Made by a program: the position numbers and the translations under genes. Below the pieces are notes generated by a model that was given only the letters and a program-made list of their open reading frames with translations, was not told the DNA's origin and did no database searches. A stretch of DNA of 64,000 bases from Sphingobacteriaceae bacterium (GTDB lineage Bacteria; Bacteroidota; Bacteroidia; UBA7662): NCBI GenBank assembly GCA_013824115.1, contig PNNG01000005.1, forward strand, positions 3,075 to 67,074, read 5' to 3'. Below, in pieces: positions 9,801 to 40,592 of this stretch. The number at the start of each line of letters is the position of its first letter. The stretch's first letter is position 1.

Positions 9801-9911
9801 GAAGTGGCCAAGGGTTACGAGTGCGGTTTGAACATTGCCAACTTCAACGACATCAAAGAAGGCGACATCATCGAAGGTTACGAACGTGTAGAGGTGAAAG
9901 CCAAGTTGTAA
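6852..9911 (+). CDS. infB: Translation initiation factor IF-2
   Basis: 1019-aa ORF. GTPase motifs [16 protein letters not shown] and NKID. Long Pro/Ala-rich and Gly/Gln-rich low-complexity N-terminus. Confidence 0.95.
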
Positions 9912-9937
9912 GGGCCAATCGGCTCATAAAAGAAAAG

Positions 9938-9964
9938 CCGCTTCCGAAAGGGGGCGGTTTTTTT
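9938..9964 (+). terminator. Rho-independent terminator of infB
   Basis: Hairpin ccgcttcc-GAAA-gggggcgg (8 bp including G-U pairs) followed by a T-run at 9958-9964. Confidence 0.7.
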
Positions 9965-10031
9965 GTTGGGAAGAGATGAAAATCTGCTGCTGTTGGCTGT
10001 TTAGCCCCTTTGGCCATCCAAAACCGAAATG

Positions 10032-11063
10032 CTATTTCCTTTTCTTAAGCTGTGTTTCAAGCAATTGGAGGTCCTCTAAATCGGCCTGTTTAGCTTCAAA
10101 CTGCTTTCGGGCAGCATCAAATTTTTCATATTCGTGTCGCACGCGCTCTTCCATCATCGCGTGAGAAATAGAACCAGAATTTTGTAGAACCTCCTTATCA
10201 TTAAACTGCAGAATTCGGTCTACATTTTCTTTCCAAAACGACAAGGTAATGTCTTTGCGTTCCTTCACCCTAAGTTCTGCGGTTTCTAGAAAAATCACCG
10301 TCAAACGGTTGAGCGTGTCCAACTCATCTGCAGTTAGGTAGTTTTTGGCAATTACGATGTCGTGCTTTCGCACCTTACTTCCTTTCCAAGTGGTGAGACC
10401 CATATTAGGTGCCATTGCATCGGCCCTGTTAACAATAATTTCTGCTGCGGTTTGATTTACTACAGCATAAAGCAGCTTATTCTGGGTTTCTGCAAAAAAC
10501 ATTTGTGTTGCTTTGTCCGTGGCGTCATAATCGCTGCTCAAAGCGAGTAAATCGCGTATTTTTTGATAAAAGCGTTTTTCCGAAGTGCGTATTTCTCGAA
10601 TCCGCTCTAAGAATTCATCGAAATAATCGGGACGGCCATCGGGGTTTTTCAAGCGCTCGTCATCCATTACAAAACCCTTGATCATGTATTCGCGCAAGTT
10701 CTGATTGGCCCAAATTCTAAACTGGGTGCCACGCTTACTTCGAACCCTGAATCCAATGGCTAAGATCATGGCCAACGAATAAAAAGTAACCTCGTATTGT
10801 TTACCATCAGTCGCAGTTGTTAAGTAATTCTTAATAACTGAATTTTGATTTAACTCTTTCTCTTTCAGTATGTTTGAGATATGCATGCTGATGTTCGGAA
10901 TAGAGGTGTCAAAAAGTTCGGCCAGCTGCTGTTGGTTCATCCAAACGTCGCCATCGCGGGCGTACAAAGCCACACTGGTCGTGCCATCGGCGGTATTGTA
11001 AATGATAAGCTCAGAACCCACAGGCGAAATTTTTATAAAGTTAGCATCAAATGCGCAATTCAT
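10032..11063 (-). CDS. RhuM-family protein
   Basis: The N-terminus ...SELIIYNTADGTTSVALYARDGDVWMNQQQLAELFDTSIPNISMHISNILKEKEL matches the RhuM-family pattern from memory. Start uncertain: ATG 11063 or GTG 11021. Visibly AT-richer than its flanks. Confidence 0.75.
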   Translation of the reverse strand: MNCAFDANFIKISPVGSELIIYNTADGTTSVALYARDGDVWMNQQQLAELFDTSIPNISMHISNILKEKELNQNSVIKNYLTTATDGKQYEVTFYSLAMILAIGFRVRSKRGTQFRIWANQNLREYMIKGFVMDDERLKNPDGRPDYFDEFLERIREIRTSEKRFYQKIRDLLALSSDYDATDKATQMFFAETQNKLLYAVVNQTAAEIIVNRADAMAPNMGLTTWKGSKVRKHDIVIAKNYLTADELDTLNRLTVIFLETAELRVKERKDITLSFWKENVDRILQFNDKEVLQNSGSISHAMMEERVRHEYEKFDAARKQFEAKQADLEDLQLLETQLKKRK

Positions 11064-11108
11064 GATGAGCAATTCAATTCCGCTGGATGGCAAGAACCGT
11101 ATAATCAA

Positions 11109-11200
11109 TATGACTTCGAACGCGTGGTGAAGGCCAAGCTATAAGGGCCTATTGGCTCATGAATAAAGAAGCCGCTTCCGAAAGGGGGCGGCTTTGTTGT
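11109..11200 (+). repeat. Displaced, diverged second copy of the infB 3' end plus terminator hairpin
   Basis: It reads ...DFERVVKAKL* followed by gccgcttccgaaagggggcggc. The infB end reads ...[11 protein letters not shown] followed by the same hairpin at 9870-9964. Roughly 80% identity by eye, with a one-codon indel. Confidence 0.85.
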
Positions 11201-11246
11201 TTGCAGGGAGTGTATGTGATTGATGCTTATTATTCGCTGTGCCACG

Positions 11247-11254
11247 TACTTTTG
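11247..11254 (+). promoter_or_regulatory. -7 box TACTTTTG of pnuC (leaderless geometry)
   Basis: tacttttgTGCCatg: the TAnnTTTG box ends 4 nt before the pnuC ATG at 11259. Confidence 0.4.
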
Positions 11255-11258
11255 TGCC

Positions 11259-11822
11259 ATGTCAATCATCTCGCTTCTTGAAACCGTTGCCGCTATTTTT
11301 GGTGTGCTAAGCGTGGTGATGGCCCGTTTTGCACACATTGGGGTGTTTCCTACCGGTTTGGTGAGCACCCTTCTGTACATTTACATTTGCTGGGGTGCTG
11401 GTTTGTATGCCGATATGGGTATCAATGTTTGGTATAGCCTGCTAAGTGTTTATGGCTGGTGGCGCTGGTTGCAACCCAAAGCAGGCTTGGAGGAGCGTGC
11501 AGTAAGTTGGTCAAGCCCCCAACTGCGCCGAGCCAGTTTGCTTTTGACGCTGGCTGCCTGGGCAGTGCTTTACTTCGTTTTGCGAGCGTTTACCGACAGC
11601 ACGGTTCCCGTAGCCGATGCTTTTACCACCGCGGTAGCTATTGTGGGCATGTACCTCATGGCCGAAAAAAAGGTGGAGAACTGGTTGGCTTGGTTGGTGG
11701 TAGATGTGGTGTCGGTAGGCTTGTATGCATACAAAGGGCTCTATATATCGTCACTGCAGTTTGTGGTTTTTACGGCTTTGGCTTGGTGGGGATGGACAAG
11801 TTGGAAAAAGCTAGCGAAGTAG
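11259..11822 (+). CDS. pnuC: Nicotinamide riboside transporter PnuC
   Basis: Polytopic membrane ORF. The segments ...GVLSVVMARFAHIGVFPTGLVSTLLY... and ...YGWWRW... are typical of PnuC. The ORF is trimmed to the ATG at 11259. Confidence 0.8.
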   Translation: MSIISLLETVAAIFGVLSVVMARFAHIGVFPTGLVSTLLYIYICWGAGLYADMGINVWYSLLSVYGWWRWLQPKAGLEERAVSWSSPQLRRASLLLTLAAWAVLYFVLRAFTDSTVPVADAFTTAVAIVGMYLMAEKKVENWLAWLVVDVVSVGLYAYKGLYISSLQFVVFTALAWWGWTSWKKLAK

Positions 11823-11911
11823 GATCAAGCGATTTCCCGGACTCCGCTTCACCATGGACCTAAACCCACCACTCAAATCATCATTTCCGCCCCAATGCTC
11901 CACCATCTCCG

Positions 11912-11919
11912 CTATATTT
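11912..11919 (+). promoter_or_regulatory. -7 box TATATTTG upstream of the 2OG-oxygenase gene
   Basis: Exact TAnnTTTG match about 47 nt upstream of the ATG at 11966. Confidence 0.35.
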
Positions 11920-11965
11920 GCAGTTTGCTGAAAAATTAACGTATTTGAACCCTAGAAATTCACTT

Positions 11966-12919
11966 ATGTCACACGCCAATATTCCATCTATCGATCTCCA
12001 TCATTTTACCCAAGGCACCCCCGAGCAACGCGCTGCCTTTGTGAAAGATTTGGGTGAAGCCTACGAAAACGTGGGTTTTGTAGCGGTTAAAAACCACGGG
12101 TTGAGCGATGGGCTCAGCGCCGATTTGTATGCACAGGTAAAAGCCTTCTTTGCCCTGCCGCAAGAGGTGAAAGACCAATATGAAATTGCCGGCTTGGCCG
12201 GACAACGCGGCTATACGGGTTTCGGAAAAGAGCACGCCAAGGGCCGCAGTACAGGCGATTTGAAGGAGTTTTTTCAATTTGGCCAAACGGTTACCGATGG
12301 TGACCCTGTGAAAAGCGAATACCCCGACAATGTGCAGGTGAACGAGTTGCCGTATTTTAATCCCAAAGCCATAGAAGCCTACCGAACGCTGGAAGAAGCC
12401 GGTAGGCAAATGCTGAGGGCCATTGCTTTGTTTTTAGAAGTCGGTGAAAACTATTTCGACGACAAAATCCACAACGGCAATAGCATTTTGAGAGCCATCC
12501 ATTACGGGCCCATTACCCACGAACCGAAAGACGCGGTGCGTGCGGCAGAACACGAAGACATCAACCTCATTACTTTGTTGATGGGCGCATCGGCCGACGG
12601 ACTTCAGATTTTGAATAAAAACAACGAATGGGTATCGGTAACCGCCTTACCCGAGCAAGTAGTGGTAAACGTAGGCGATATGCTGCAGCGTTTGACCAAT
12701 AACCGACTCAAGTCGACTACCCACCGCGTAGTGAATCCACCCCGCGAGCAGTGGGGAAGTTCTCGTTATTCGATTCCCTTCTTCCTCCACCCCCGTTCGG
12801 CCATGCGTCTCGATTGTTTGCCGCAATGTATCACGGCCGAAAACCCCTTGCATTATGCCCCTATCAGTGCAGGCGAGTACCTCGATGAGCGCTTGCGTGA
12901 AATTGGATTGAAAAAGTAA
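11966..12919 (+). CDS. 2-oxoglutarate/Fe(II)-dependent oxygenase (isopenicillin N synthase-like family)
   Basis: The DIOX_N-like N-terminus (IPSIDLHHF...FVAVKNHG) and the HxD...H core (AEHEDINLITLL ... STTHRVVNP) fit the family. Confidence 0.8.
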   Translation: MSHANIPSIDLHHFTQGTPEQRAAFVKDLGEAYENVGFVAVKNHGLSDGLSADLYAQVKAFFALPQEVKDQYEIAGLAGQRGYTGFGKEHAKGRSTGDLKEFFQFGQTVTDGDPVKSEYPDNVQVNELPYFNPKAIEAYRTLEEAGRQMLRAIALFLEVGENYFDDKIHNGNSILRAIHYGPITHEPKDAVRAAEHEDINLITLLMGASADGLQILNKNNEWVSVTALPEQVVVNVGDMLQRLTNNRLKSTTHRVVNPPREQWGSSRYSIPFFLHPRSAMRLDCLPQCITAENPLHYAPISAGEYLDERLREIGLKK

Positions 12920-12923
12920 ATCC

Positions 12924-14108: not shown

Positions 14109-14188
14109 TGCTGTTTCAGGGCGAACGGTGCTCTGACGGCAGCTGCATATTTACGTAATAACTGTACATTTGAATACATTCTATCGCC

Positions 14189-15153: not shown

Positions 15154-15162
15154 ACCCATTCC

Positions 15163-17196: not shown

Positions 17197-17203
17197 CATT
17201 TGT

Positions 17204-22624: not shown

Positions 22625-24640
22625 CTATTTACTGCGAATCACCACTTTTTCCGACAGGCTTAGGCTGCCTTGCGCAGGCAAGTTGAATTGCCAAGTAAGC
22701 AAGCCCCTGCGGGCGTCGAGATCGGCTTTGGGAAGAGTGGTGACTTCCACGCTTACCTCCTCGTATTCCGAAATGGGCACCTGGTCTTCCACCACCACTT
22801 TTACCGCCACTTCCTTGCTGCTGCGGATGGCGAGGGTAGAGTTGATTTCTTGCTTATTGCTACCAAGGATGCGTTTGCTCAGTCGGTCGGCATCTTGTAC
22901 GCGTACGGCTTGTACCGAAGGATCGCGGCCCAGGCCCAAGAGCAAAGTATCGCTCAGTTGTTGCGGCTGAATGGGCGTTCTGCCAATGAAGGTGCCCTGG
23001 TAGTACACCGAAGCCTCGCCAGCCAGCAAGCCCAATTGCTGAAATTGGGGAATGCGGGCAACCAAAAAGGCATCGCGACTCACACGTGGTACCAAATGAT
23101 AAACGTATTCGGCTGAAACTTCGGCCTTGCGCACAAAAAGTTGGCGTTTTTCGCCATCGCTGGGCAGACTCTGTTTGCCTTCGATGAGGTATTCGGGCAA
23201 TTCGTCGTTGGCGGCAAGGACGTCCTGAAGCAGGGAGTTAAGCTGAATGAATGAGCCACTACCGAGAGAGGAACTGCTTCCTCCAACTCTTATTCCATCT
23301 ACTAAATAGTCTTGTTGCGTACCGAAAACCCCACCTGCCACGCCACTAATACTATTCACGTCCCTCGTTGGCAATGCGGCAATTTCTTCTCTGGTAACCA
23401 CTCCTCCCCTGCGGGTTTCATCTTTCGAAATGAGCGGCACTTCATAATCTACAATGACCACTTCCGACAAAGAGGTACCAGCCTTTAACCGAACATCCAC
23501 AATGGAAGCACGTTCCGCCACCATGCTCACATTGGTTATTAAAGAGGGATTGTAGCCAACGTAGCTTACCTGAATGTCGTAAAGCCCAACAGGTAGCTTT
23601 GCGGTTTTGTATCGGCCGTCAATGTCGGTAGTGGTGCCTGCCACCACCTTTCCGTTTTGTTTGATAACCACGTTGGCAAATGGAATTCCTTCCTTTGGCC
23701 GTTGTTCATCGGTTACCTTTCCTTGGAAATGACTCAACCGTCGGGTGTTGTGTAAGGGTGTCTTTTCGGGCGTGGCTGGCTGAGTTTGGCCCAGGACCCA
23801 AGGCAGTAGCTCGGGTTTTTCGCTGGTTAAAAGCGGATTAGCGGTGCTCAACTTGAGGCTGACTTGCTCCCAATTTTCACCACCGAATTGGTACACCTCT
23901 GCCATATAGCTGAGCTCGGCCGGAGCACCAATTTGTTTCACGCGAAATTCGTAATTAGGTGCCCAACCGGCGGCTTCATCGAAATAGCTCACCACCAAAT
24001 TGATTTTGTGGGCTTTGGGCGCCCGCAAGCTGAGCAGCAAGGCATGGCGCACTGGCTCGGCCACAGCAGCAGCACGACTCATGGCTTGGTACACCAATTT
24101 CAATTCTTCTTGCAAGGCTTCAATGTCGCGGGCAATACGTGCCCGGGTTTTACGCAACTCCATCAAGCGCTGCCGGTAAAAGTCGGCCGCCTCGCGCAGG
24201 GTTTGCACGGCGGCATTGCGATTCTGCTCGATTTGGCTGTTGGCCAGCAAAATTTTTTCTTCCTGTTCATACACACTCAACTCATGTTTCAGGTCGGCTA
24301 TTTGTCGGCCGATGGCTTTTTGTTTGGTTTCAAGTCGTTCTTGCGCGGCGGTATCGGCAGGCTTAAAGCTTTCGAGGGTAATAGTTTGCAGGCTCAACAA
24401 CTGCACTTCGTCTAAACCCGAAACCTGTACGCTGCCCGCACGCAAGAATTGCGACAGGCCCTTGATCATTACAAACTGTTCGCCGGGGCGCAAATTCACC
24501 TCGCCAGAACGGGTAATTTGGGCGCCAGTGAAGAACAAAGTCACCTGTTTTATTTTGCTGCGGAGCAGTAGGGTGTCGGTGGCTTGCGCCAGGCTTGCTG
24601 AAAAGAGCAAGACCAGCAGTGCAGGTAGTAGCTTTTTCAT
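22625..24640 (-). CDS. DUF4139/DUF4140 (MuiA-like) protein with coiled coil and an inserted CarboxypepD_reg-like segment
   Basis: Starts at MKKLLPALLVLLFSASLAQA (ATG 24640). N-terminal DUF4140-like beta region, a coiled coil of about 110 aa, and a DUF4139-like C-terminus. The insert GKVTDEQ...FANVVIKQNGKVVAGTTTDIDGRYK...YVGYNP... then VVTREEIAALPTRDVNSISGVAGGV resembles a TonB-receptor N-terminus. Confidence 0.7.
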   Translation of the reverse strand: MKKLLPALLVLLFSASLAQATDTLLLRSKIKQVTLFFTGAQITRSGEVNLRPGEQFVMIKGLSQFLRAGSVQVSGLDEVQLLSLQTITLESFKPADTAAQERLETKQKAIGRQIADLKHELSVYEQEEKILLANSQIEQNRNAAVQTLREAADFYRQRLMELRKTRARIARDIEALQEELKLVYQAMSRAAAVAEPVRHALLLSLRAPKAHKINLVVSYFDEAAGWAPNYEFRVKQIGAPAELSYMAEVYQFGGENWEQVSLKLSTANPLLTSEKPELLPWVLGQTQPATPEKTPLHNTRRLSHFQGKVTDEQRPKEGIPFANVVIKQNGKVVAGTTTDIDGRYKTAKLPVGLYDIQVSYVGYNPSLITNVSMVAERASIVDVRLKAGTSLSEVVIVDYEVPLISKDETRRGGVVTREEIAALPTRDVNSISGVAGGVFGTQQDYLVDGIRVGGSSSSLGSGSFIQLNSLLQDVLAANDELPEYLIEGKQSLPSDGEKRQLFVRKAEVSAEYVYHLVPRVSRDAFLVARIPQFQQLGLLAGEASVYYQGTFIGRTPIQPQQLSDTLLLGLGRDPSVQAVRVQDADRLSKRILGSNKQEINSTLAIRSSKEVAVKVVVEDQVPISEYEEVSVEVTTLPKADLDARRGLLTWQFNLPAQGSLSLSEKVVIRSK

Positions 24641-24769
24641 GGCTTTTGGTTTTAGAGGTGAAACTTGGTTCAAGGTAGTTTCGCCACAAGGCCATGACAA
24701 TAGCGTTTGGTGGATGTGACGGTAGGCTGACCAAATGCTGACGCAGAACCGACAATGCAGCCTCAACAA

Positions 24770-25254: not shown

Positions 25255-25463
25255 ACTTTGAATCCCGAATTGCCCCCGGCTCTCGGGATGTCGCTTCGCT
25301 CCACTTTGAATCCCGAATCCCCGAATCGCTTTTGGCTCTCGGGGCAGGCGCCCCCGGCTCTCGGGATGTCGCTTCGCTCCACCTTGAATCCCGAATCCCC
25401 GAATCGCTTTTGACTCTCGGGGCAGGCGCTTTTGGCTTTCGGGATTTCGCTTCGCTCAACCTT
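25255..25463. repeat. 78-bp tandem repeat, about 2.5 copies
   Basis: Copy 1 (25273-25350) and copy 2 (25351-25428) are nearly identical: cccccggctctcgggatgtcgcttcgctccacYttgaatcccgaatccccgaatcgcttttgRctctcggggcaggcg. Partial diverged copies lie on both sides. Confidence 0.85.
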
Positions 25464-25472
25464 AAGCCCATA

Positions 25473-25502: not shown

Positions 25503-25505
25503 CCC

Positions 25506-25588
25506 CATCTTTAGGGGTGCTGCATTTCGGTGCGGCTGAGATCATACCCATTGAACCTGCACAGGGTAATTCCTGCGAAGGGAAGATG
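25506..25588 (+). promoter_or_regulatory. TPP (THI-box) riboswitch
   Basis: catctt-tAGGGGTGC-...-GGCTGAGA-tcat-ACCC-att-GAACCTG-cacaGGGTAATtCCTGCGAAGGGA-agatg. All conserved THI-element blocks are present, P1 is catctt/aagatg, and a U-run follows. Confidence 0.85.
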
Positions 25589-25657
25589 TTTTTTTTAAGT
25601 CAGTTCCTGCTTACTTGCCCCTGGTGAGCATTTGTAAAACCTTTAACTGTTTCGCAA

Positions 25658-28084
25658 ATGCGTACATTCACCCTCCTCACGCTCCTGCTGCTGCAACTGG
25701 CAGCCGGTGCACAAACCACCCAACACCAGCTTTCGGGTAAAATCACCGATGCCGCTACCGGACAACCACTGGCCGGCGCATCCATCCTGCTCGAAAACAC
25801 CTTCCGCGGTACCGCCACCGGTGCCGATGGCAGCTTCCGCCTGGCCCAACTGCCGGCGGGCACCTACCAGCTCAGGGTACAATACCTGGGTTACGAAATG
25901 CAAAGCCAGCGTATTGATCTGCGGGCCGACCGCGAAATCAATATCGCCCTGCAAGCCAAACGCATGCTTACCGATGAGGTGGTGGTGGAAGCTACCCGCG
26001 CCAGCAATATCACGCCCATGGCAGTGACCAATGTGACCAAGGAGGAGCTGGCCAAGCAGAACCTGGGGCAAGATTTGCCATTCCTGTTGCAATTCACGCC
26101 CTCGGTGGTGGTGACCAGCGATGCCGGAGCAGGTGTTGGTTATACCGGTATCCGCATCCGGGGCAGCGACGCCACCCGCATCAACGTTACCATGAACGGC
26201 ATTCCGGTGAACGATGCCGAATCGCACGGGGTGTTTTGGGTGAATATGCCCGACTTCGCCAGCTCGGTCGACAACATCCAAATCCAGCGCGGCGTGGGCA
26301 CCAGCACCAATGGCGCCGCAGCTTTCGGGGCCAGCCTCAACATCCAAACGAACCAGCTCATCGATACGGCCTATGCCAACCTGGGCTTGAGCGTGGGTTC
26401 GTTCAACACCTGGCGGCAAAACGCCACCTTCGGCACCGGCTTGCTCAAAAGTGGCTGGGCTTTCGACGGACGTTTGAGCCGTATTACCAGCGACGGCTAC
26501 ATCGACCGGGCCAGCAGCGACCTCAGCAGCTATGCCCTCAGCGGAGCACGGTATGGGAAGAAAAGCATCCTGCGTTTCAATATCTTCAGTGGTAGAGAAA
26601 AGACCTACCAGGCCTGGTACGGGGTGCCGCAAGATTCGCTGGCTACGAACCGTACTTTTAATCCGGCCGGACAATACACCGATCCGCAAGGCAATACCCG
26701 CTTTTACGAAAACGAAACCGACAATTACCAGCAAGACCACTACCAGCTGTTTTACACCTATACCCCCAACAGCCGCTGGACTTTGAACAGCACCTGGTTT
26801 TACACTTACGGTCGGGGTTATTACGAGCAATTCCGCAACAACGAGCGTTTTTCGCGCTACGGACTGCCCAATGTGGTCATTGGCGGTGACACCGTAACCC
26901 GCACCGACTTTATTCGCCAGCGCTGGCTCGACAACCATTTTTACGGCACCTTGCTCACCGCCAATTACAAATCGGGTAAGCTCAATGCCACTTTCGGCGG
27001 CGGCCTTTATCAATACAATGGCGACCATTTTGGCGATGTGGTGTGGGCACGTTTGCTAGGGCCTACGAGCGAATTACGTCCGCGTTACTACGAAAACAAC
27101 GCGCTCAAAACCGACTACAATTTCTATGTGCGGGGTGAGTACAGCCTGCTTGACAACCTGTTTTTATATGGCGATTTGCAATACCGCGGCATCAACTACC
27201 GCTTCGAAGGCTTCAACAACCAGCTGGTAAATGTGGATCAGAACGTGCGTTTCGACTTTTTCAATCCCAAGGCCGGTGCCTTGTACCGCATCGATGCCGC
27301 GAGTCAGGTTTTTGCTTCGGTGGCTGTGGGCAACCGCGAGCCGGTGCGCGCCGATTTGGTGGAATCGAGTCCGGTGAGTCGCCCCCAGGCTGAGCGCATG
27401 ATCGACTACGAATTGGGTTACAAGCGCCAGGGCAAACGCAGTCTCTTTCAGGCCAATGTGTACTACATGGACTACTACAATCAACTGGTATTGAACGGCC
27501 AAATCAACGATGTGGGCGGCTACATCCGCACCAATGTGGACCGGAGTTTCCGTGCGGGCATTGAGCTGGAGTATGGGGTAAATGTGACCAAATGGTTCCA
27601 GTGGGGCGCCAACCTCACGCTCAGCCGCAACCGCATCCTCAATTACGATGAATACGTTGACTTGTACGACGCCAATTTCGACTTCATTGGCAATGCCCGC
27701 AGCCGCAGCTTCAACAACACCCCCATTGCCTTTTCGCCCGACGTGATTGCCACCAGCATCCTTGGTTTTCGTCCGGCCAAAGGCTTGCAGGTGGATGTAC
27801 TCAGCAAATACGTTGGCAAGCAGTTCCTCGACAACAGCGGCGACGATGCCCGTTCGTTGCCTGCCTACATGGTGCACGATTTACGCGTGAACTACCAAAT
27901 GCCCGGTTATGGTTTCGCCAAGCAGTTTGTTTTTGGCTTGTTGGTGAACAACTTCACCAATTTGATGTACAGCGCCAACGGCTATACTTATCCCTTCATT
28001 TTCGATGGTACACTGGTGGCATCCAACTTCTTCTATCCCCAGGCCGGAACGAATTTCCTGGCCAATGTGCAGTTGCGGTTTTAA
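25658..28084 (+). CDS. TonB-dependent outer-membrane receptor (CarboxypepD_reg N-terminus), TPP-riboswitch controlled
   Basis: 808-aa ORF with a signal peptide, a CarboxypepD_reg-like domain (LSGKITDAATGQPLAGASILLENT...GADGSFRL), a plug, a beta-barrel and a terminal ...NVQLRF. Confidence 0.9.
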   Translation: MRTFTLLTLLLLQLAAGAQTTQHQLSGKITDAATGQPLAGASILLENTFRGTATGADGSFRLAQLPAGTYQLRVQYLGYEMQSQRIDLRADREINIALQAKRMLTDEVVVEATRASNITPMAVTNVTKEELAKQNLGQDLPFLLQFTPSVVVTSDAGAGVGYTGIRIRGSDATRINVTMNGIPVNDAESHGVFWVNMPDFASSVDNIQIQRGVGTSTNGAAAFGASLNIQTNQLIDTAYANLGLSVGSFNTWRQNATFGTGLLKSGWAFDGRLSRITSDGYIDRASSDLSSYALSGARYGKKSILRFNIFSGREKTYQAWYGVPQDSLATNRTFNPAGQYTDPQGNTRFYENETDNYQQDHYQLFYTYTPNSRWTLNSTWFYTYGRGYYEQFRNNERFSRYGLPNVVIGGDTVTRTDFIRQRWLDNHFYGTLLTANYKSGKLNATFGGGLYQYNGDHFGDVVWARLLGPTSELRPRYYENNALKTDYNFYVRGEYSLLDNLFLYGDLQYRGINYRFEGFNNQLVNVDQNVRFDFFNPKAGALYRIDAASQVFASVAVGNREPVRADLVESSPVSRPQAERMIDYELGYKRQGKRSLFQANVYYMDYYNQLVLNGQINDVGGYIRTNVDRSFRAGIELEYGVNVTKWFQWGANLTLSRNRILNYDEYVDLYDANFDFIGNARSRSFNNTPIAFSPDVIATSILGFRPAKGLQVDVLSKYVGKQFLDNSGDDARSLPAYMVHDLRVNYQMPGYGFAKQFVFGLLVNNFTNLMYSANGYTYPFIFDGTLVASNFFYPQAGTNFLANVQLRF

Positions 28085-28131: not shown

Positions 28132-28743
28132 TTATAAGAATGGAGAAAAGGCTTGCTCAACTTTAAGCCGCATCTGATTCCAAGTTAATGGCTTTATCAT
28201 TTGAGGCATCGTTTGTTTCTCAGCATCTTCAAAGTACAAGAGGCTTTTCACTGCCAAAAAGAGGCTACTACTCGGGTATTTTTGTTGATACAACTCAAGG
28301 AGTTTATTTGGGCTAAACACTTCCAGTAAAAAATACAAATCCACAAAGTCTTTGATATTTCCCCTATTGGTGATTGCATGAATTTTCATGGCTGCAATGT
28401 CATCTACCGAGGCAATCCAAAATCCTTCGGCCTCTTCTGGGGCTTTTAACCACCCATTCGGGTAATTAACAAAATCAACTTTAACCCCTTTTACTGAAAA
28501 TACTTTGATGCTCTTGGAAGTATAAGTCAGTTGACTTTTTTCAATCTTGTTCAAATACAAATCAACAGCGTCAAAATTAATATGCTGCACTGAAAACAAA
28601 TCGAGGTCAATGGATAATCTATGGCCAAAGTGCATCGCCAAGGCTGTTCCCCCAACCAAGATAAATTCGTCGAAAAAACGAATTTGTCGAATTTCCTTCA
28701 ACACTTCTAAAGTGTCTGTTCGAACTGCGTGAATTTGGTACAT
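28132..28743 (-). CDS. AbiEii/DUF1814-like pol-beta-fold nucleotidyltransferase (putative toxin)
   Basis: 203-aa ORF with the NTase signature LVGGTALAMHFGHRLSIDLDLF (GG...DxD). AT-rich. Confidence 0.65.
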   Translation of the reverse strand: MYQIHAVRTDTLEVLKEIRQIRFFDEFILVGGTALAMHFGHRLSIDLDLFSVQHINFDAVDLYLNKIEKSQLTYTSKSIKVFSVKGVKVDFVNYPNGWLKAPEEAEGFWIASVDDIAAMKIHAITNRGNIKDFVDLYFLLEVFSPNKLLELYQQKYPSSSLFLAVKSLLYFEDAEKQTMPQMIKPLTWNQMRLKVEQAFSPFL

Positions 28744-29000
28744 CTGAACGTCGACTTATCCCTTTTGGTAAGTGTAACCAATAAATTCAAGCTCAGGTCT
28801 GTTAAGCTTCGTAGCGTAGCAGCATAATCAGCAATTTCGTCAATACTAAAATATCTCCGCAACAACCGCCAATCCTCCATGATACCATAGTCTAACACAC
28901 GGCCAACAATAAAAGCTGTATTCTTCTCCCAGCTCAACTGTTTGAGGTCAACATCCCAAAACAAATGGGGCGAAAATTCGGAAAAGGCCGGGCGTTCCAT
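28707..29000 (-). CDS. Small partner protein of the NTase (putative antitoxin; possibly DUF6922-like, unverified)
   Basis: 97-aa ORF (MERPAFSEFSPHLFWDVD...). It overlaps the NTase start by 37 nt, and its ATG abuts the stop codon of the upstream DUF4139 gene. Confidence 0.5.
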   Translation of the reverse strand: MERPAFSEFSPHLFWDVDLKQLSWEKNTAFIVGRVLDYGIMEDWRLLRRYFSIDEIADYAATLRSLTDLSLNLLVTLTKRDKSTFRCTKFTQFEQTL

Positions 29001-30362
29001 TTAGTTGTCGCTGGGAATCAATAATTCGTAGCGGTACGAATAAAAGGCTACATCGTTGGCCTCCACCTTCACTTCGTACTCCAATTTTTGCACTTCTTGC
29101 TTGGTTTTGGCTTTCAAATCGAGGTACTGATTAGCAAACCAATAGTTGCGGCGGGTGTCGGGAACACACTGTTTCACCACCCGAACCCGACCCGCTTCGA
29201 GACTGGTATTCCTGATTTCAATGCGGCCAACGTACAGATAGCTATCGTAACGCATGCCATTTAAGTCTACCGCACGCTTTTTTACCTTCACAAGTCGGGC
29301 ATTGTCGGTGAGGATGTAAGGCGAAGGTCCATACTCCATGCGCACGGTGGTTTTTTTAGGAATTTCGGGCAAATTGGCCGGAATATGCCCCAGACTCATG
29401 CCTTTGCGCTCATATATTGCCGACGAAAACCAATCCATATTACTGCCATTGGTCAGGCTCAGATAGCGTTTTCCGGTGGTTTTGCTGGTAAGGGTTTGGT
29501 CGCCGGGTTCCCATGCCGGAACAGCTACTTCATCGCTCAAAGCCAGGGGTACTTCGGCAGATAAAACCTGGAAATTGGTGCGTGTATTGGCCGGAATACT
29601 CACTCCTGTGAATCGGAAAGCAGCTTGACTGCTAAAGGCCGATACTTCACTCACTTCGTATGGGTGATTATAGTACAGTACCTCCATGTCTTCGAGTGCA
29701 AATGGGGCCGTTATGCTCAAGTCGAGACTCATTTCGGTTTTTTCCTTGTCAAAATCAAGCAAGTAACGCGCATCACTTGAGAAGTCGCTTGCAGGAATAA
29801 GAATGGTGGTGTTTAAATCAGCAAAATCGCCCGTGAGGTATACGGTAAGCACCCTGTCGAAATGCTTTACCATCGCTCCCGTTTGCAAGGCTTTTCCCCC
29901 GGCAAGATGTTGGATAGATTTAACGGGAATGGCTTCGACAGCTGTGCCTGTACGTAAAAAAACCATTTCGGCTGCTGGATGAACGGACAACAATTCGCCA
30001 GAATAACCCACGCTTTCGCGGCCTTCAAAAGCCTCAATGGTCACATTTTGTCCCACATTGGCCTTCAATAAATCGAGTAGGCTACCCAGGGCCTCCAACT
30101 TTTCTTTTTCCAATTGGTGTACTTGATAGTTCACCAGTTTTTCGCGTTCGGTCAAACGCACCTGGATGCCAGCCGCCACCGCTTGTGCTGGCAAGGTCAT
30201 TTGGTAGCGTGCCTGCCTGGTCGACATCAGGCCGCTGTATTCTAAAATCGCTGCACCATCGCGATACATGTGCAAGCGACGCAATTTGAGTTCGTTCTGC
30301 GCAAAACCGGCCGAGCTGCTCAGCAGCAAGGCCAACATCAACATCATGGGCTTTTTCATCAT
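29001..30362 (-). CDS. DUF4139-family protein (second paralogue, no coiled coil)
   Basis: Starts at the ATG at 30362 (MMKKPMMLMLALLLSSSAGFAQ, signal peptide), 1 nt after the manC stop. Beta-rich with a C-terminal region like DUF4139. Family assignment from memory. Confidence 0.65.
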   Translation of the reverse strand: MMKKPMMLMLALLLSSSAGFAQNELKLRRLHMYRDGAAILEYSGLMSTRQARYQMTLPAQAVAAGIQVRLTEREKLVNYQVHQLEKEKLEALGSLLDLLKANVGQNVTIEAFEGRESVGYSGELLSVHPAAEMVFLRTGTAVEAIPVKSIQHLAGGKALQTGAMVKHFDRVLTVYLTGDFADLNTTILIPASDFSSDARYLLDFDKEKTEMSLDLSITAPFALEDMEVLYYNHPYEVSEVSAFSSQAAFRFTGVSIPANTRTNFQVLSAEVPLALSDEVAVPAWEPGDQTLTSKTTGKRYLSLTNGSNMDWFSSAIYERKGMSLGHIPANLPEIPKKTTVRMEYGPSPYILTDNARLVKVKKRAVDLNGMRYDSYLYVGRIEIRNTSLEAGRVRVVKQCVPDTRRNYWFANQYLDLKAKTKQEVQKLEYEVKVEANDVAFYSYRYELLIPSDN

Positions 30363-30363
30363 C

Positions 30364-31446
30364 TCACAAGTATTTATCACCTACCTGCCGCTTGATTTCG
30401 AGCAGCATGTTCTTTATTTCGTTTTCTTGGTCACGCGGACAAATCAACAGGCCCTTGGGAGAATCGGCAACAATGTAATCTTCCAGTCCGCTAATGATTA
30501 CCAGTTTATCGCCTGCCACTTCAACAAGGCAGTTGCTGGCATCGTACATCACCACTTGTGCCCCCGTTACGGCATTTCCCAAGTAGTCTTTTTCGTGGGT
30601 GGCATACACCTCGCCCCACAGGGTAATGTCGGTCCAGCCAAAATCACCCAATAATACCTTCACCTTATCTTCTGCCTTGTAAATAATGGCTTGTCGGAAG
30701 GCGATGGTCTCGCACTGGGGATAAATTTTTTCGATGAAGCGTTCTTCTTCTTCTTCGTTGAGGTATGGCCGCATTTCTTCGAAAAGCTGTGCGGTATCGG
30801 GCAGGTGCTCGGCATACAAATCGAGCAAAGTGCCCACGCTTACCACCTTAATGCCCGAGTACCATAAAAAATCGCCCGATCGGTGAAAGGCATTGGCAAT
30901 TTCTTTGGTGGGTTTTTCGGTGAAGGTTTTGATGTTGTAAACCTGGTTGTCGATGGCTTCGGGTAGGTATTGAATATAGCCGTAATTCACCTCGGGCCTG
31001 CTCACCTTGATGCCTACTGTAAGCAAAACCGCATTTTTAAGTATGTACTTAAGGCCCGCTTTGATCACTTTACCAAACCTATTTACATCGGTAATCACAT
31101 GATCGCAAGGCATAATCACTACATCGGCCTGTGGGTCGCGGTTGGCAATTTTGTTGATGGCATACAAAGTGGCTGTAGCCGTGTTCTTGCGCATGGGTTC
31201 TACCACCATTTGTGATGGCAAAATGCCCGGAAGTTGCTCTTGTACCAAATGCACCCATTGCTTGTTGGTTACCACCAGCACTTGTTCGGCCGGGGTAAGG
31301 TGCAAGGCGCGTTGGTAAGTCGATTGTAGCAATGTTTCGCCGGTGCCCAACAAGTCGACAAACTGTTTGGGCTTTTGATGGGTACTCATGGGCCACAACC
31401 TGCTTCCCACCCCTCCGGCCATGATAATCACGTAAAGCTTATTCAT
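30364..31446 (-). CDS. manC: Mannose-1-phosphate guanylyltransferase
   Basis: 360-aa ORF. The N-terminus MNKLYVIIMAGGVGSRLWPMSTHQKPKQF is the classic NTP-transferase/ManC signature. Confidence 0.85.
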   Translation of the reverse strand: MNKLYVIIMAGGVGSRLWPMSTHQKPKQFVDLLGTGETLLQSTYQRALHLTPAEQVLVVTNKQWVHLVQEQLPGILPSQMVVEPMRKNTATATLYAINKIANRDPQADVVIMPCDHVITDVNRFGKVIKAGLKYILKNAVLLTVGIKVSRPEVNYGYIQYLPEAIDNQVYNIKTFTEKPTKEIANAFHRSGDFLWYSGIKVVSVGTLLDLYAEHLPDTAQLFEEMRPYLNEEEEERFIEKIYPQCETIAFRQAIIYKAEDKVKVLLGDFGWTDITLWGEVYATHEKDYLGNAVTGAQVVMYDASNCLVEVAGDKLVIISGLEDYIVADSPKGLLICPRDQENEIKNMLLEIKRQVGDKYL

Positions 31447-34702: not shown

Positions 34703-34728
34703 TTGGCAGCAAGCGGGGTTGTGAGGGC

Positions 34729-35511: not shown

Positions 35512-35566
35512 CCGCAAAACTGCTGAGGCAGTTTTTATTGCTATCTTTACTTCCCAAACATTTCCT

Positions 35567-36547: not shown

Positions 36548-36554
36548 GACCGTT

Positions 36555-37061
36555 TTGAGCGATTACCATTGGTACGCTGCTTACACCTTGCCGCGGTATG
36601 AAAAAAGGGCAAAGCTGCAGCTCGACAAACAGGGCATAACCAATTGGCTGCCCTTACAACGACTACGCAAACGCTGGAGCGACCGTTGGAAGTGGGTGGA
36701 AGAGCCGGTATTCAGGTCGTATTTGTTTGTGCATATCAGTGAGCGCGAGTATTTCCAAACCCTCAATTCCTATGGCATTGTGCGTTTTGTAGCATTCAAC
36801 GGTCAGGCAGTGCGCATACCCGACAGCCAAATGGATTTTCTACGCCGCATGCTCGATACGGGTTACGAATTGGAAGCTACGGAGCTCGATTTGTCGCCCG
36901 GCGACCGCGTAGAAGTGCTTACTGGCCCATTGGCTGGCCGACAAGGCATATTGATTCAAAGGGCCGGCGATAAGAAATTCAGAATTGATCTCGATTTTAT
37001 GGGACAGTCGGTTTTTGTAACCGTACCTATTGAAAATCTCACCAAGGAATTAACGGCTTAA
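36555..37061 (+). CDS. UpxY-family NusG-like transcription antiterminator
   Basis: NGN domain (WYAAYTLPRYEKRAKLQL...PVFRSYLFV) plus a KOW motif (GDRVEVLTGPLAGRQGIL). Confidence 0.75.
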   Translation: MSDYHWYAAYTLPRYEKRAKLQLDKQGITNWLPLQRLRKRWSDRWKWVEEPVFRSYLFVHISEREYFQTLNSYGIVRFVAFNGQAVRIPDSQMDFLRRMLDTGYELEATELDLSPGDRVEVLTGPLAGRQGILIQRAGDKKFRIDLDFMGQSVFVTVPIENLTKELTA

Positions 37062-37693
37062 AGTAGTCCGGCTTTTTGAAGACTGGGCAACAAAGGTGCG
37101 TTTTGCGGATGCAGCAAGGTCTGTAGGCCTTTGGCTTGTGCTCCTAGGAGGTGGCCAGCAGAGTCGTCGATGAAAAGTGTATGGGCCGGATTAAACGCTC
37201 CCTGTTCAACCACATAGGCAAATACGGGAGGCTCTGGTTTTCTTAAACCCATTTGCTGAGAGTAATAAATGCGATCGAAGAACTTGCTCAGTTTTTCACC
37301 TGGATGGCTCTGTTCGAATTCCGCCTCCAGCGCTTCTACGTGCAAGCTGTTGGTATTGCTGAGCAGTACCACATCGCAGTGATTGCGTAGCGGTTGAATC
37401 AATGCGAGTTGATCTAATTGTACGCGGCCTAAAATCGCATTCCAGCAAGCGGCATATTGCTCGTGGCTAAAGTGCCTTCCAAAAGTGGTGGCAAGGGTAT
37501 CTAAAAATTGAGCGGTATGAATGTGCCCGGTTTCGTAGGCATCAAAGAACTTTTCGTTCTGAAGTTTTTCGAGGGTGGGTGCCACCTCTTTGCCTACCAA
37601 TTGCTGCAAACTGTACGCAAAGCGGTCCATATAAACATCTATGAACAAGCCTCCGAGGTCGAAGATGAGGTGGTGAATGGGTGGCTGCATGGC
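37058..37693 (-). CDS. HAD-superfamily hydrolase
   Basis: Motif I is HLIFDLGGLFIDV; later motifs are LLSNTN and FIDDS. The ORF is trimmed to the ATG at 37693. Confidence 0.75.
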   Translation of the reverse strand, partial: AMQPPIHHLIFDLGGLFIDVYMDRFAYSLQQLVGKEVAPTLEKLQNEKFFDAYETGHIHTAQFLDTLATTFGRHFSHEQYAACWNAILGRVQLDQLALIQPLRNHCDVVLLSNTNSLHVEALEAEFEQSHPGEKLSKFFDRIYYSQQMGLRKPEPPVFAYVVEQGAFNPAHTLFIDDSAGHLLGAQAKGLQTLLHPQNAPLLPSLQKAGLL

Positions 37694-37734
37694 GTAACAA
37701 TTAAAAGGCCGCACCTAAGTGCGGCCTTTGCCCG

Positions 37735-37808
37735 TGGGCCCTGCTGGGCTCGAACCAGCGACCCTCTGATTATGAGTCAGATGCTCTAACCTGCTGAGCT
37801 AAGAGCCC
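37735..37808 (-). tRNA. tRNA-Met (anticodon CAT; an Ile2/lysidine identity cannot be excluded)
   Basis: The reverse complement GGGCTCT-TA-GCTC-AGCAGGTTA-GAGC-A-TCTGA-CTCATAA-TCAGA-GGGTC-GCTGG-TTCGAGC-CCAGC-AGGGCCC-A folds as a cloverleaf. CCA is not encoded. It is not initiator-like, because the anticodon stem lacks the 3 GC pairs. Confidence 0.85.
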
Positions 37809-37819
37809 CAATGGGAGAG

Positions 37820-37827
37820 CAAAAGTA
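37820..37827 (-). promoter_or_regulatory. -7 box TACTTTTG for tRNA-Met
   Basis: On the minus strand, tacttttg lies 11 nt upstream of the tRNA 5' end. Confidence 0.4.
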
Positions 37828-37883
37828 ACCAAAATGTATCTATCCGCTAATGTTCGCCCCAAAAAAACTGAACTTTTACCATT

Positions 37884-37908
37884 AAAAAAGCCCCAATGAA
37901 GGGGCCTT
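37884..37908 (-). terminator. Rho-independent terminator of the small secreted-peptide gene
   Basis: The minus strand reads aggcccc-ttcat-tggggct followed by tttttt. Confidence 0.5.
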
Positions 37909-37932
37909 TAATCGGTTAGAAAAGACTGCTTA

Positions 37933-38118
37933 TTAAGCGTCCTTCTTTTTACTGCAGCAAGCCTTGCCTTCACCTTCGGCAGGAGCGCAAGACTTTTTTT
38001 CTTCCGTTTGCTCGGTTTTGGTGGCTTCTTTTTTCTTCTTCTTTTTATCGCCATCGCCGGCATAGCTGATTACGGCTACAGCCGAAACGAGCAGGAGGGT
38101 CATTAAAATCTTTTTCAT
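37933..38118 (-). CDS. Small secreted Lys/Glu-rich, Cys-containing protein (hypothetical)
   Basis: 61-aa ORF. A signal peptide (MKKILMTLLLVSAVAVISYA) is followed by GDGDKKKKKKEATKTEQTEEKKSCAPAEGEGKACCSKKKDA. It has its own terminator. Confidence 0.45.
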   Translation of the reverse strand: MKKILMTLLLVSAVAVISYAGDGDKKKKKKEATKTEQTEEKKSCAPAEGEGKACCSKKKDA

Positions 38119-38198
38119 CGGAGTGTGATTTTTATCAATAGAGGAAACGAATATACGTAATTATCAGAACTTTGTTGTGCCCTAGGGGTTTTTTTCGC

Positions 38199-39791
38199 AT
38201 GCAGGAACAGTTCGATTTTATAGTAGTGGGCTCGGGCATAGCCGGACTCAGTTTTGGTTTGAAAGCCGCACGTTTGGGCAAAGTGTGCATCATCACCAAA
38301 AGCGACGAAGACGAATCGAACACCAAATATGCCCAGGGGGGTGTGGCGGTAGTGACCGATTTGCTTAAAGACAGCTTCGACAAACACGTGGCCGATACCC
38401 TCGATGCCGGCGATGGTGCCTGCAAATTGCCAATTGTGGAAATGGTGGTGCAAGAAGGTCCGGCCCGCATACAGGAAGTGATTGACATGGGCGCTCAATT
38501 CGACCGCGACGAGCACGGCAGCTACGACCTCGCCCGAGAAGGGGGCCACAGCGTAGGTCGCGTGCTGCACCACAAAGACATGACGGGCTTCGAAATTGAG
38601 CGCACCCTGCTGAGCCAGGTATACGAACACCCCAACATCACCCTTTACAGCCACAAATTCGCGGTTGACCTCATTACCCAACACCATTTGGGCGAGGAGG
38701 TGACCAAAAAGCGAACCGACATTTGCTGCTATGGCATCTACGCCCTCAATACGGCCAGCAGGGAAATTGAGACCATCCTTGGCAGGGTAGTAGTATTGGC
38801 TACAGGCGGGGCCGGACAGGTGTACAGCACCACTACTAATCCGCTCATTGCCACTGGCGACGGCATTGCCATGGCTTACCGGGCCAAAGCGCGCCTCGAG
38901 AACATGGAATTCATCCAGTTTCACCCCACGGCCTTGTACAATCCGGGTGAGCACCCTGCTTTCCTCATTTCGGAGGCGGTTCGTGGTTATGGCGGGGTGC
39001 TCAAAGACATCCATGGGAATGCCTTCATGGACAGATACGACAAGCGCAAATCATTGGCCCCACGCGATATCGTTGCTAGGGCCATTGACAGCGAGCTGAA
39101 AAAATCGGGTGCCGATTATGTGCTGCTTGATGCCACGCACATTCCCAAAGCCACCATGCTGTCGCATTTCCCCAACATCTACCAAAAATGCCTCGATATC
39201 GGTATCGACATGGCCAAGGAGCCGGTTCCGGTGGTGCCTGCCATGCACTATTTGGTAGGCGGCATCAAGGTAGATGAGCAGGGCCGTACCAGCATTCAAA
39301 ACCTGTATGCTTGTGGCGAATGTGCGAGTACAGGATTACATGGGGCCAATCGATTGGCGTCGAACTCACTGCTCGAAGCTGTGGTATTTGCCGACCGCAT
39401 TTTCCGCGATGTAGAGGGCCGCTGGCAGCAGATTGATTTCCGCAGCGACATTCCGGCCTGGAACGATGAAGGAACTTCGGTGCCCGACGAGCAGATCCTC
39501 ATCAGCCAGAATTTGCGCGAAACCCAGGCCATCATGAGTGCGTACGTAGGCATTGTGCGCAACGATTTGCGTTTAGAGCGGGCCTTTAACCGCCTGCATA
39601 TCTTGCATCAGGAAACCGAGTGGTTGTATGCCAAAAGTAAGTTGTCGGTGCCTTTGCTGGAGCAGCGTAACATCCTCAAAGTGGCTTACTGCATCATCAA
39701 ATCGGCCCGGCAGCGCACCGAAAGCCGCGGATTGCACTACACCACCGACTACCCCGGCAAACAAGCGCCTTTTGTGGGGACGGTGATATGA
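38199..39791 (+). CDS. nadB: L-aspartate oxidase
   Basis: FAD-binding N-terminus FDFIVVGSGIAGLS, the motif RSLAPRDIVARAI, and a C-terminal ...ESRGLHYTTDYP. The ORF is trimmed to the ATG at 38199. Confidence 0.9.
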   Translation: MQEQFDFIVVGSGIAGLSFGLKAARLGKVCIITKSDEDESNTKYAQGGVAVVTDLLKDSFDKHVADTLDAGDGACKLPIVEMVVQEGPARIQEVIDMGAQFDRDEHGSYDLAREGGHSVGRVLHHKDMTGFEIERTLLSQVYEHPNITLYSHKFAVDLITQHHLGEEVTKKRTDICCYGIYALNTASREIETILGRVVVLATGGAGQVYSTTTNPLIATGDGIAMAYRAKARLENMEFIQFHPTALYNPGEHPAFLISEAVRGYGGVLKDIHGNAFMDRYDKRKSLAPRDIVARAIDSELKKSGADYVLLDATHIPKATMLSHFPNIYQKCLDIGIDMAKEPVPVVPAMHYLVGGIKVDEQGRTSIQNLYACGECASTGLHGANRLASNSLLEAVVFADRIFRDVEGRWQQIDFRSDIPAWNDEGTSVPDEQILISQNLRETQAIMSAYVGIVRNDLRLERAFNRLHILHQETEWLYAKSKLSVPLLEQRNILKVAYCIIKSARQRTESRGLHYTTDYPGKQAPFVGTVI

Positions 39792-39819
39792 TTGATTTTT
39801 GTTAGATTTGTATAAAGAG

Positions 39820-40038
39820 ATGGATATGAGCAAGGTAGTTGTTGAACTTAAGCACAAAAATGCATTAGCACTGCTTCAACAGCTGGAGGCATTGAAGGTC
39901 ATCATGCTCGACGCTTCCCAAACTGCTAAGCAAACAAGTAAACTCTCTGATAAGTACAAAGGCACGTTTTCAAAGGAAGACGCGGACAGCTTTGATGCCA
40001 ACACCTACCAATCGAGAAACGAATGGAGCGGTTCCTAA
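39820..40038 (+). CDS. Putative antitoxin of the PIN module (hypothetical small protein)
   Basis: Intact ORF of about 72 aa (MDMSKVVVELKHKNALALLQQLEAL...). It overlaps the start of the downstream PIN reading frame by 16 nt, which is a classic TA layout. Confidence 0.5.
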   Translation: MDMSKVVVELKHKNALALLQQLEALKVIMLDASQTAKQTSKLSDKYKGTFSKEDADSFDANTYQSRNEWSGS

Positions 40039-40400
40039 TTGACAACAATGTGCTTTCTCGCTTCCTATCAGAAGAATTAACTCATGCCGGTTTAATCCTT
40101 GTAGAGTAAGCATTTAATCAAGTACCCATCATTTCGGTCATCACCCAAATAGAAGCTTTATCATGGGTTCATTCGGACAAAGAGAAGGAAAGAATCATAT
40201 CCGAATTGGTGCAGGACTCCATTGTAATTCCCCTTTCTGATGAAATTGTTAGCCATTGTATCCGACTTAGGCGAGGTAGAAAAATGAAGACACCTGATGC
40301 CATTATCGCTGCCACCGCCATTGCACATGATTTAACACTTTTATCGTTCGACCAAGGATTTGAGGGGATTGGTGGCTTAAAATGGAAACAACCCATTTAG
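40023..40400 (+). pseudogene. PIN-domain (VapC-like) toxin gene interrupted by an in-frame TAA
   Basis: A single frame reads MERFLIDNNVLSRFLSEELTHAGLILVE-TAA(40107-40109)-AFNQVPIISVITQIEALSW...TPDAIIAATAIAHDLTLLSFDQGFEGI. It shows PIN-like acidic positions (D7, E in QIE, D in TPDAIIAATA). Confidence 0.7.
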
Positions 40401-40500
40401 AGCAATAAACGTCATTCCGCCAAACACCCCCAGTACATCATTTTGTAATCAAAATGGGTGAAAAAGCCCGTATGTGCAGCACAAACACATCAAACCATTC

Positions 40501-40592
40501 AATCGGCCCGGCAGCGCACCGAAAGCCGTGGATTACACTTCACCACCGACTACCCCGGCAAACGAGCGCCTTTTGTGGGGACGGTGATATGA
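40501..40592 (+). repeat. Second copy of the last 92 bp of nadB (direct repeat)
   Basis: Segment 40501-40592 matches 39700-39791 with 4 mismatches in 92 (my alignment), including the stop codon. Confidence 0.9.

Follow-up and report, generated by a model that had tools for sequence, protein, structure and literature searches.

How short gene-carrying units come to lie directly behind conserved genes without a recombinase of their own is the question raised by two loci in a 64-kb stretch (hereafter, the window) of contig PNNG01000005.1 from the metagenome-assembled genome of a Sphingobacteriaceae bacterium (assembly GCA_013824115.1). At both loci a core gene, either infB (translation initiation factor IF-2) or nadB (L-aspartate oxidase), ends normally and is followed by a short cargo and then by a second, direct copy of the gene end. 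An earlier note on this DNA, made from the letters alone, had taken this layout as a sign of either a trans-acting, cassette-style insertion system or a very regular decay product. The comparisons reported here drew on related contigs (designated by L numbers) that were reached through a protein collection and that show identities of 98.5%, 94.5%, 90%, approx. 85% and approx. 76-81% to the window. Overall, each of the two loci goes back to an old event that was passed on by inheritance within a single genus of uncultured Bacteroidota. These events fit known processes and reveal no new system; they add an example to kinds of event that are already known, and the evidence does not support reading them as a new insertion system. 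Our preferred explanation, which we hold tentatively, is that homology-anchored recombination added incoming DNA with its own copy of the gene end, and that the resulting units were later spread by ordinary recombination and then decayed.

A self-comparison of the 64 kb yielded only two non-tandem direct repeats, both of them gene-end copies (i.e., of nadB and infB). Similarly, when the 3' ends of 49 genes were each compared with the 6 kb downstream, nadB (164) and infB (99) were clearly separated from the other 47 genes (29 or less), and this sensitive scan found no degenerate extra copies elsewhere in the window. The nadB repeat (97 nt, 94% identity) is wholly coding and the TGA stop codon ends both copies, as the earlier note had described. 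The infB repeat (approx. 85% identity, two indels) fits that description only in part; the gene end is indeed duplicated, but the repeat contains approx. 33 nt of coding sequence and the TAA stop codon, while the remaining approx. 53 nt represent 3' untranslated region (UTR) with a terminator hairpin. In both units the gene end at the left is complete, and the gene end at the right is partial and passes into native DNA (Table 1). The units are short (0.7-1.15 kb) and AT-rich as initially reported, with a GC content of 0.41-0.43 for the cargo as compared to 0.504 for the window, in which such a low value is reached by only 3.6% of 700-bp segments. We also found no integrase, transposase, resolvase or HUH domains among the scanned open reading frames (ORFs) of the window, as previously noted, and none in orthologous contigs according to their Pfam annotation. 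Chance or an assembly artefact can be ruled out, as these are the sole two such repeats in the window and both structures are present again in independent assemblies (L081, L082, L083 and L117). In a base-rate screen for direct repeats beside gene ends in 1.58 Mb of other Bacteroidota loci, this layout was absent; of the 19 direct repeats found, the likeliest candidate (in L007) was inspected and is a tandem paralogue pair, and the other gene-end-tagged repeats were judged, from coordinates alone, to be paralogous or repeated genes.

Table 1. Features of the infB and nadB loci and of one further gene pair in the window
Feature	Coordinates	Strand	Evidence
infB (IF-2), intact	6852..9911	+	Exact match to MBA4302821.1, named IF-2; Pfam domains of orthologues
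infB copy 1 (end of infB, TAA stop, 3' UTR, intrinsic terminator hairpin)	9881..9967	+	Local alignment
infB cargo, 1149 bp, GC 0.426	9968..11116		Missing in L098, L120-L125
RhuM-family gene, PADLOC candidate defence family PDC-S05	10032..11066	-	PF13310, PDC-S05
infB copy 2 (displaced, decaying end/UTR/terminator, continuous with native pnuC upstream region)	11117..11201	+	Right flank matches L098 empty site
pnuC (nicotinamide mononucleotide transporter), conserved right flank of the infB hotspot	11259..11822	+	PF04973; adjoins infB in empty relatives
nadB (L-aspartate oxidase), intact, start codon uncertain	38172..39791	+	Pfam FAD_binding_2, Succ_DH_flav_C; 78% identical to UBA7662 NadB
nadB copy 1 (last 32 codons and TGA stop, part of functional gene)	39695..39791	+	Repeat alignment
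nadB cargo, 704 bp, GC 0.413	39792..40495		Missing in L086
Putative antitoxin gene, 70 aa	39826..40038	+	ORF; 97% conserved in L083
PIN-domain (VapC-like) toxin pseudogene	40023..40400	+	Pfam PIN 1.9e-13; in-frame TAA at 40107-40109 (codon 29)
nadB copy 2 (displaced gene end running into native downstream DNA)	40496..40592	+	Left junction common to L083, L117, L115
ParE-like toxin gene of resident convergent pair, frameshifted near 3' end	40540..40917	-	L086 orthologue
Partner (antitoxin) of ParE-like gene, 80 aa, intact	40899..41141	-	Exact match to MBA4302848.1; conserved in L083-L086
DUF6922 and AbiEii gene pair, outside the pattern	28132..29000	-	Pfam, PADLOC; exact matches to MBA4302836.1 (DUF6922) and MBA4302835.1 (AbiEii)

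Empty sites were found in relatives for both units, which thus represent real insertions at gene 3' ends. For nadB the empty site is that of L086, where nadB continues uninterrupted into copy-2-like sequence and the right flank, followed by a convergent pair of genes encoding a ParE-like toxin and an 80-aa antitoxin. The insert is present in the window, L083, L117 and L115/116, with a shared left junction of copy 2 (...ACACATC[A/C]A[A/T]CCATT...). As the flanking genes of L115/116 are only 78-81% identical to those of the window, this common junction indicates one old event followed by inheritance, and the 86% identity of the L115/116 cargo shows that it has not evolved more quickly than the DNA around it. 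Homologues of the PIN protein with at least 90% identity number three among 5.8 billion proteins, all of them encoded at the nadB site in this genus, and the next homologue shows 60% identity. In L117, copy 2 is followed by another antitoxin gene and a degraded PIN gene instead of the ParE pair, which indicates that the site downstream of nadB is itself variable; three states of the gap between nadB and the DUF6544 gene were observed, i.e., the ParE pair alone, the PIN pair plus the ParE pair, and the PIN pair plus a second PIN pair. L117 also carries an approx. 279-bp insert resembling a miniature inverted-repeat transposable element (MITE) inside the spacer of the nadB cassette (positions 6434-6712), which is missing in the window; it shows terminal inverted repeats (TCATTGTCGTTTAGTTAAG and CTTAACTAAACGACATTGA, 18/19 matching) and an 8-bp target duplication (ATCAAAAT).

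The nadB cargo had been described as an antitoxin gene plus a PIN toxin gene; both are present, but the PIN gene is a pseudogene. The layout is that of a type II VapBC system, with the 70-aa ORF located upstream and overlapping the PIN start by 16 nt; the putative antitoxin had no Pfam or PADLOC match. L117 and L115 have an intact PIN gene, whereas it is interrupted by a nonsense codon at codon 16 in L083 and at codon 29 in the window; these nonsense codons arose independently, and the upstream antitoxin gene stays intact. Decay is also seen in the resident ParE-like gene. Its L086 orthologue encodes 81 aa with a Pfam ParE_toxin match; the window gene carries a 1-nt deletion, such that the alignment to L086 diverges past residue 70 and the ORF reads on into nadB copy 2.

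The nadB locus further shows evidence of recombination. Identity along the locus is mosaic, with the ParE region being the most variable stretch (79%, between segments of 97-98%). Within a 92-nt block of the nadB repeat, the 5' half clusters by copy type and the 3' half clusters by genome; in the 3' half, the two copies of the window are identical at 45 of 46 positions, as compared to 40 of 46 positions between the second copies of the window and L117. This grouping by genome indicates that the two copies exchange sequence. Both the mosaic identity and the genome-wise co-variation of the copies fit recombination.

The gap between infB and pnuC also varied in content. The RhuM insert and the repeat are found as in the window in L082 (98.7%) and L081 (94.5%), and the gap is empty (111-121 bp) in L098 (InfB 90% identical) as well as in L120-L125 (InfB 69% identical, 17 contigs). 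L097 and L100 carry a 280-aa Bro-N gene in the position and orientation of RhuM; the two proteins are 23% identical in their N-terminal domain. In L099 (approx. 85%) the gap extends over 3.4 kb and contains RhuM, a Bro-N fragment, a terminator-containing remnant, a 375-aa methyltransferase-like ORF (6366-7493, minus strand) and a degraded fragment of the RhuM N-terminus (7604-7806). L118 and L119 (InfB approx. 85% identical) carry an 83-aa antitoxin-like gene followed by a ParE/RelE-like pseudogene with an internal stop (L118:13105-13905), and no repeat. The infB-pnuC gap is thus a variable hotspot that holds RhuM, Bro-N, a 3.4-kb mix, an antitoxin and ParE-like pair, or nothing. The L099 RhuM is 94% identical to that of the window with a different N-terminus, and the left part of the L099 remnant matches the copy-2 junction of the window (9 of 2000 shuffles reached the score); the RhuM junction is common to the window, L081 and L082 and probably also to L099. 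Two further candidate repeats were rejected. A second infB-end copy in the Bro-N alleles is marginal in L097, where a degenerate terminator-like remnant is found (123 of 2000 shuffles), and absent in L100; the signal for an inverted infB-end copy in L099 comes from the palindromic terminator hairpin and is unconvincing beyond it. In several alleles, the RhuM and Bro-N genes are preceded by a recurring motif of approx. 40 nt (GTTATCGACACGAAAAAGTATAAGAATACCC-like), which may represent a shared promoter region.

As the earlier note had recognized, the infB cargo encodes a RhuM protein. The match to the family is full-length (PF13310, 1.6e-108, profile positions 1-250 of 252; PDC-S05, 4e-145), and the PDC-S05 assignment makes the gene a candidate for a defence function. 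The first approx. 16 codons (11020-11066) are unique to the window allele, homologues aligning only at residues approx. 17-344, and the gene may have regained a start where the insertion junction formed. RhuM is an unusually mobile gene; homologues with 77-83% identity are found in Flavobacteriia, Kapabacteria and Balneolales, whose InfB proteins are less than 70% identical, and a homologue with 77.6% identity is located on the Haliscomenobacter plasmid pHALHY01. No close relatives of RhuM were found in viral contigs.

With regard to the origin of the two units, we infer a route in which, at each site, one old event would have brought in the cargo together with an incoming copy of the end of the core gene. 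One crossover would have occurred in the gene-end homology, and the other join would have been illegitimate, or a circular fragment may have been taken up through a single Campbell-type crossover. New cargo would in this way have been stacked ahead of the resident gene end, with the downstream DNA not being replaced, and the displaced gene end of approx. 90 bp would be the scar of the event. The structure was subsequently inherited and would also have moved between strains by ordinary recombination in the flanks; the two copies exchanged sequence by gene conversion, and the cargo was swapped (RhuM for Bro-N or vice versa) or decayed (PIN and ParE toxins). It is established that linear DNA can integrate through a homologous join combined with an illegitimate one (PMC3240628), and transformation is able to create merodiploid duplications (PMC3784515).

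We favor this homology-anchored route because cargo without repeats is found at the same sites, no integrase or integrase relic was found at either site in the related contigs examined (10-kb flanks, available genomes), and the infB repeat contains lineage-specific non-coding sequence. Repeat-less, recombinase-less cargo includes the ParE and antitoxin pair of L086, the second pair of L117, the genes of L118/L119, the Bro-N gene of L097/L100 and the mix of L099; cargo turnover at these sites therefore needs no repeats resembling the attachment (att) sites of integrative elements. The approx. 53 nt of lineage-specific UTR and terminator in the infB repeat indicate that the incoming copy originated from the same chromosome or from that of a close relative. 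Additional support is provided by the active recombination in and around the repeats, by the mobile character of cargo genes such as RhuM and by the lack of ends common to the two cassettes. Moreover, a 7-nt sequence (CATCAAA) found at the beginning of nadB copy 1 is matched on the cargo side of the junction with copy 2, which is typical of an illegitimate join.

The units resemble the products of homology-facilitated illegitimate recombination, which combines a homologous anchor in a conserved gene with an illegitimate join and involves no dedicated recombinase (PMC3240628). They also resemble the product of a Campbell-type single crossover of a circle, which yields the order copy, insert, copy. 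Both routes, however, have been described experimentally, usually with deletions or laboratory plasmids, and the literature searched yielded no examples of natural, fixed gene-end scars of approx. 90 bp around defence or toxin-antitoxin genes. A further parallel is given by the minimal mobile elements of Neisseria and by defence or toxin-antitoxin hotspots flanked by core genes, which reportedly (PMC3787668, PMC1797815) consist of alternative small gene sets without mobility genes that occupy a gap between conserved genes and are exchanged by recombination in the flanks. The nadB and infB sites likewise hold alternative cargo between conserved flanking genes, but duplicated gene ends have not been described as a product of such hotspots.

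Several points weigh against the homology-anchored route. There are two independent scars of similar length (87-90 and 92-97 nt), both located at gene 3' ends and both with the gene restored; precisely such scars are left by site-specific integrases with gene ends as their targets. Homology-facilitated illegitimate recombination, moreover, is mostly reported with deletions and not with duplications. A donor arrangement in which nadB is followed by the antitoxin and PIN genes without copy 2 was not found in 80 species representatives, and the protein collection contains just three close homologues of the PIN protein. As the events are old, an integrase could have vanished without trace, and coverage of the genome was that of the 64-kb window only.

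These points lead to the strongest alternative, i.e., that the units are relics of an integrative element. Such an element would have encoded a tyrosine or serine recombinase and carried an attP site mimicking the 3' end of nadB or infB; its integration would have restored the gene with the copy it carried, and later internal deletions would have taken away the recombinase and all other content save one or two selfish or defence genes, leaving the attL and attR sites, as in cis-mobilizable elements (CIMEs). We regard this as possible, with the odds somewhat against it, because the two scars of approx. 90 nt match what integrases leave behind, and because the age of the events would have allowed the enzyme to disappear. 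A restored gene end, cargo and a displaced gene end form the classical footprint of integration at a gene 3' end; toxin-antitoxin, RhuM, Bro-N and methyltransferase genes are typical accessory genes of mobile elements, with RhuM occurring on plasmids and phages, and the several units in series at the infB site of L099 resemble accretion. On the other hand, no integrase, excisionase, relaxase or pseudogene of these was found at either site in the related contigs or in the window, and the infB repeat holds non-coding sequence specific to the host lineage. Among the 80 species representatives, the closest of which has a 78% identical NadB and no synteny outside nadB, none showed a nadB-end duplication within 10 kb, and an integrase was not among the families shared by at least two of the 69 proteins encoded downstream of nadB (single-member families being unlisted). 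No arm-like or core-like motifs are common to both cassettes, the nadB repeat shows no dyad of the kind found in recombinase core sites, and other cargo occupies the same sites without repeats.

Differences between the copies of the gene ends had appeared to favor an element-borne, functional allele from elsewhere, as they are biased to synonymous changes (8 synonymous and 6 non-synonymous, over 29 and 91 sites, respectively). This bias does not discriminate between the routes, however, because a fossil copy beside a gene under purifying selection gives the same bias; the outgroup infB genes of L118 and L120 share the CGC, AAG and CTG states with infB copy 2, as expected for a fossil of the ancestral allele. 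The synonymous bias is thus no proof of a foreign allele.

CIMEs have lost their integration and transfer genes and have kept attL and attR (PMC5704250). The present units share with CIMEs and with pseudo-SCC (staphylococcal cassette chromosome) elements a small size, a location behind a core gene, direct repeats that include the 3' end of this gene, a lack of integration genes of their own and the possibility of serial units. Pseudo-SCC elements, which are located behind rlmH, are recombinase-less, att-flanked remnants, and the known examples of these and of CIMEs show repeats of approx. 15-30 bp, are several kb long and are tied to an integrase-bearing family at the same site; here, by contrast, the repeats are approx. 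90 bp and the units 0.7-1.15 kb, and no cognate integrase-bearing element was found at the same sites in the related contigs or within 10-kb flanks in the 80 species representatives. In phage 21 and e14, both of which integrate in icd of E. coli, the incoming DNA supplies an alternative gene 3' end of at least 100 bp with mainly synonymous differences, and the original icd end comes to lie beyond the insert. These are complete or defective prophages with an integrase, however, and the present units contain one or two cargo genes. In tycheposons and in the island arrays at tRNA and ssrA genes, partial copies of the 3' end of the target gene likewise lie between the cargo units, but these elements rely on element-encoded tyrosine recombinases, no such enzyme being found here, and mostly target RNA genes.

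A duplication generated in place appears unlikely. Replication template switching or break repair that copied in foreign DNA and resumed approx. 90 nt upstream, or an unrecognized insertion mechanism with a staggered target cut of approx. 90 nt, would give two copies that are identical at first, of which copy 2 would then be the fossil. In line with this, the repeat lengths are similar at both loci, infB copy 2 retains the outgroup states, the nadB junction shows microhomology, and both infB copies carry derived UTR features (GGGCC.AT.GGCTCAT) that are missing in L097 and L098. The shared UTR features can, however, be explained by gene conversion, which was demonstrated for nadB; only two events are seen, and the cargo has no defined element ends. 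In addition, we know of no prokaryotic insertion mechanism that gives target duplications of approx. 90 bp.

The weakest of the explanations is the trans-acting system that the earlier note had put forward, i.e., small circles with a gene-end mimic of approx. 90 bp, inserted and excised through a recombinase whose gene lies elsewhere in the genome. Two recombinase-less units within 64 kb as compared to none in 1.58 Mb of other Bacteroidota loci, the alternative cargo at the infB site, and a recombinase search that covered the window and not the whole genome speak for such an active system, but we judge it highly improbable, given that each locus represents one old junction inherited across lineages, that close homologues of the PIN cassette occur nowhere besides the nadB site, that the cassettes have no recombination site in common, that the cargo evolves at the rate of the flanks or slower while its toxins decay, and that a third cassette is a resident gene pair (see below). 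The infB and nadB cassettes share no common end sequences and show neither terminal inverted repeats nor homology past the limits of the repeats; nothing beyond the layout links the two units. They differ from integron cassettes in that no shared imperfect inverted repeat or common end and no integrase were found in the window, and from transposons, insertion sequences and MITEs in that terminal inverted repeats are absent and the direct repeats are approx. 90 nt long and match gene ends. Very little probability remains for the broader proposition that a recombinase encoded elsewhere, or a new process with a target duplication of approx. 90 nt, places tiny cargo circles behind core genes by means of a 3'-end mimic.

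The third cassette, a DUF6922 and AbiEii gene pair, had been noted as starting directly after the stop codon of a DUF4139 gene with no visible duplication. The lack of a gene-end duplication was confirmed by the 3'-end scan; the gene order is kept in 10 related contigs (L087-L096) with approx. 85% nucleotide identity. These two observations indicate a resident gene pair that does not share the pattern. The gene located upstream (29001-30380) had no Pfam match and is thus not a DUF4139 gene; the DUF4139 match in orthologous contigs falls on the counterpart of 22625-24769.

A few further observations in the window concern other features. Integrative elements usually target tRNA genes, but the two found here, tRNA-Met (37734-37808, minus strand) and tRNA-Gln (50510-50585, plus strand), are accompanied by neither an island nor a partial duplicate. 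A 78-nt unit is present in approx. 2.5 tandem copies (25272-25469 and 25503-25600) just upstream of a thiamine pyrophosphate riboswitch, and a TonB-dependent receptor gene (25658-28084) follows the riboswitch; by coordinate arithmetic, one related contig ends near this tandem repeat. Another short tandem repeat with a 32-nt AT-rich unit (45854-45938) is located just upstream of an AAA_14/DUF4143 ATPase gene (44661-45824, minus strand).

Overall, our data show that the infB-pnuC and nadB-DUF6544 gaps are polymorphic hotspots for small toxin-antitoxin and defence genes in this genus. If a trans-acting system or a new process were at work after all, the loci would be old products of an unrecognized, cassette-like acquisition of defence and toxin genes. 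Small genes of these classes are often found alone between core genes, with the route of their arrival not visible; the scars described here record the addition of DNA. With empty, occupied and re-filled states in related contigs, the two sites form a convenient natural setting in which to ask if islets of this kind arise by ordinary recombination or through integrases that have since been lost.

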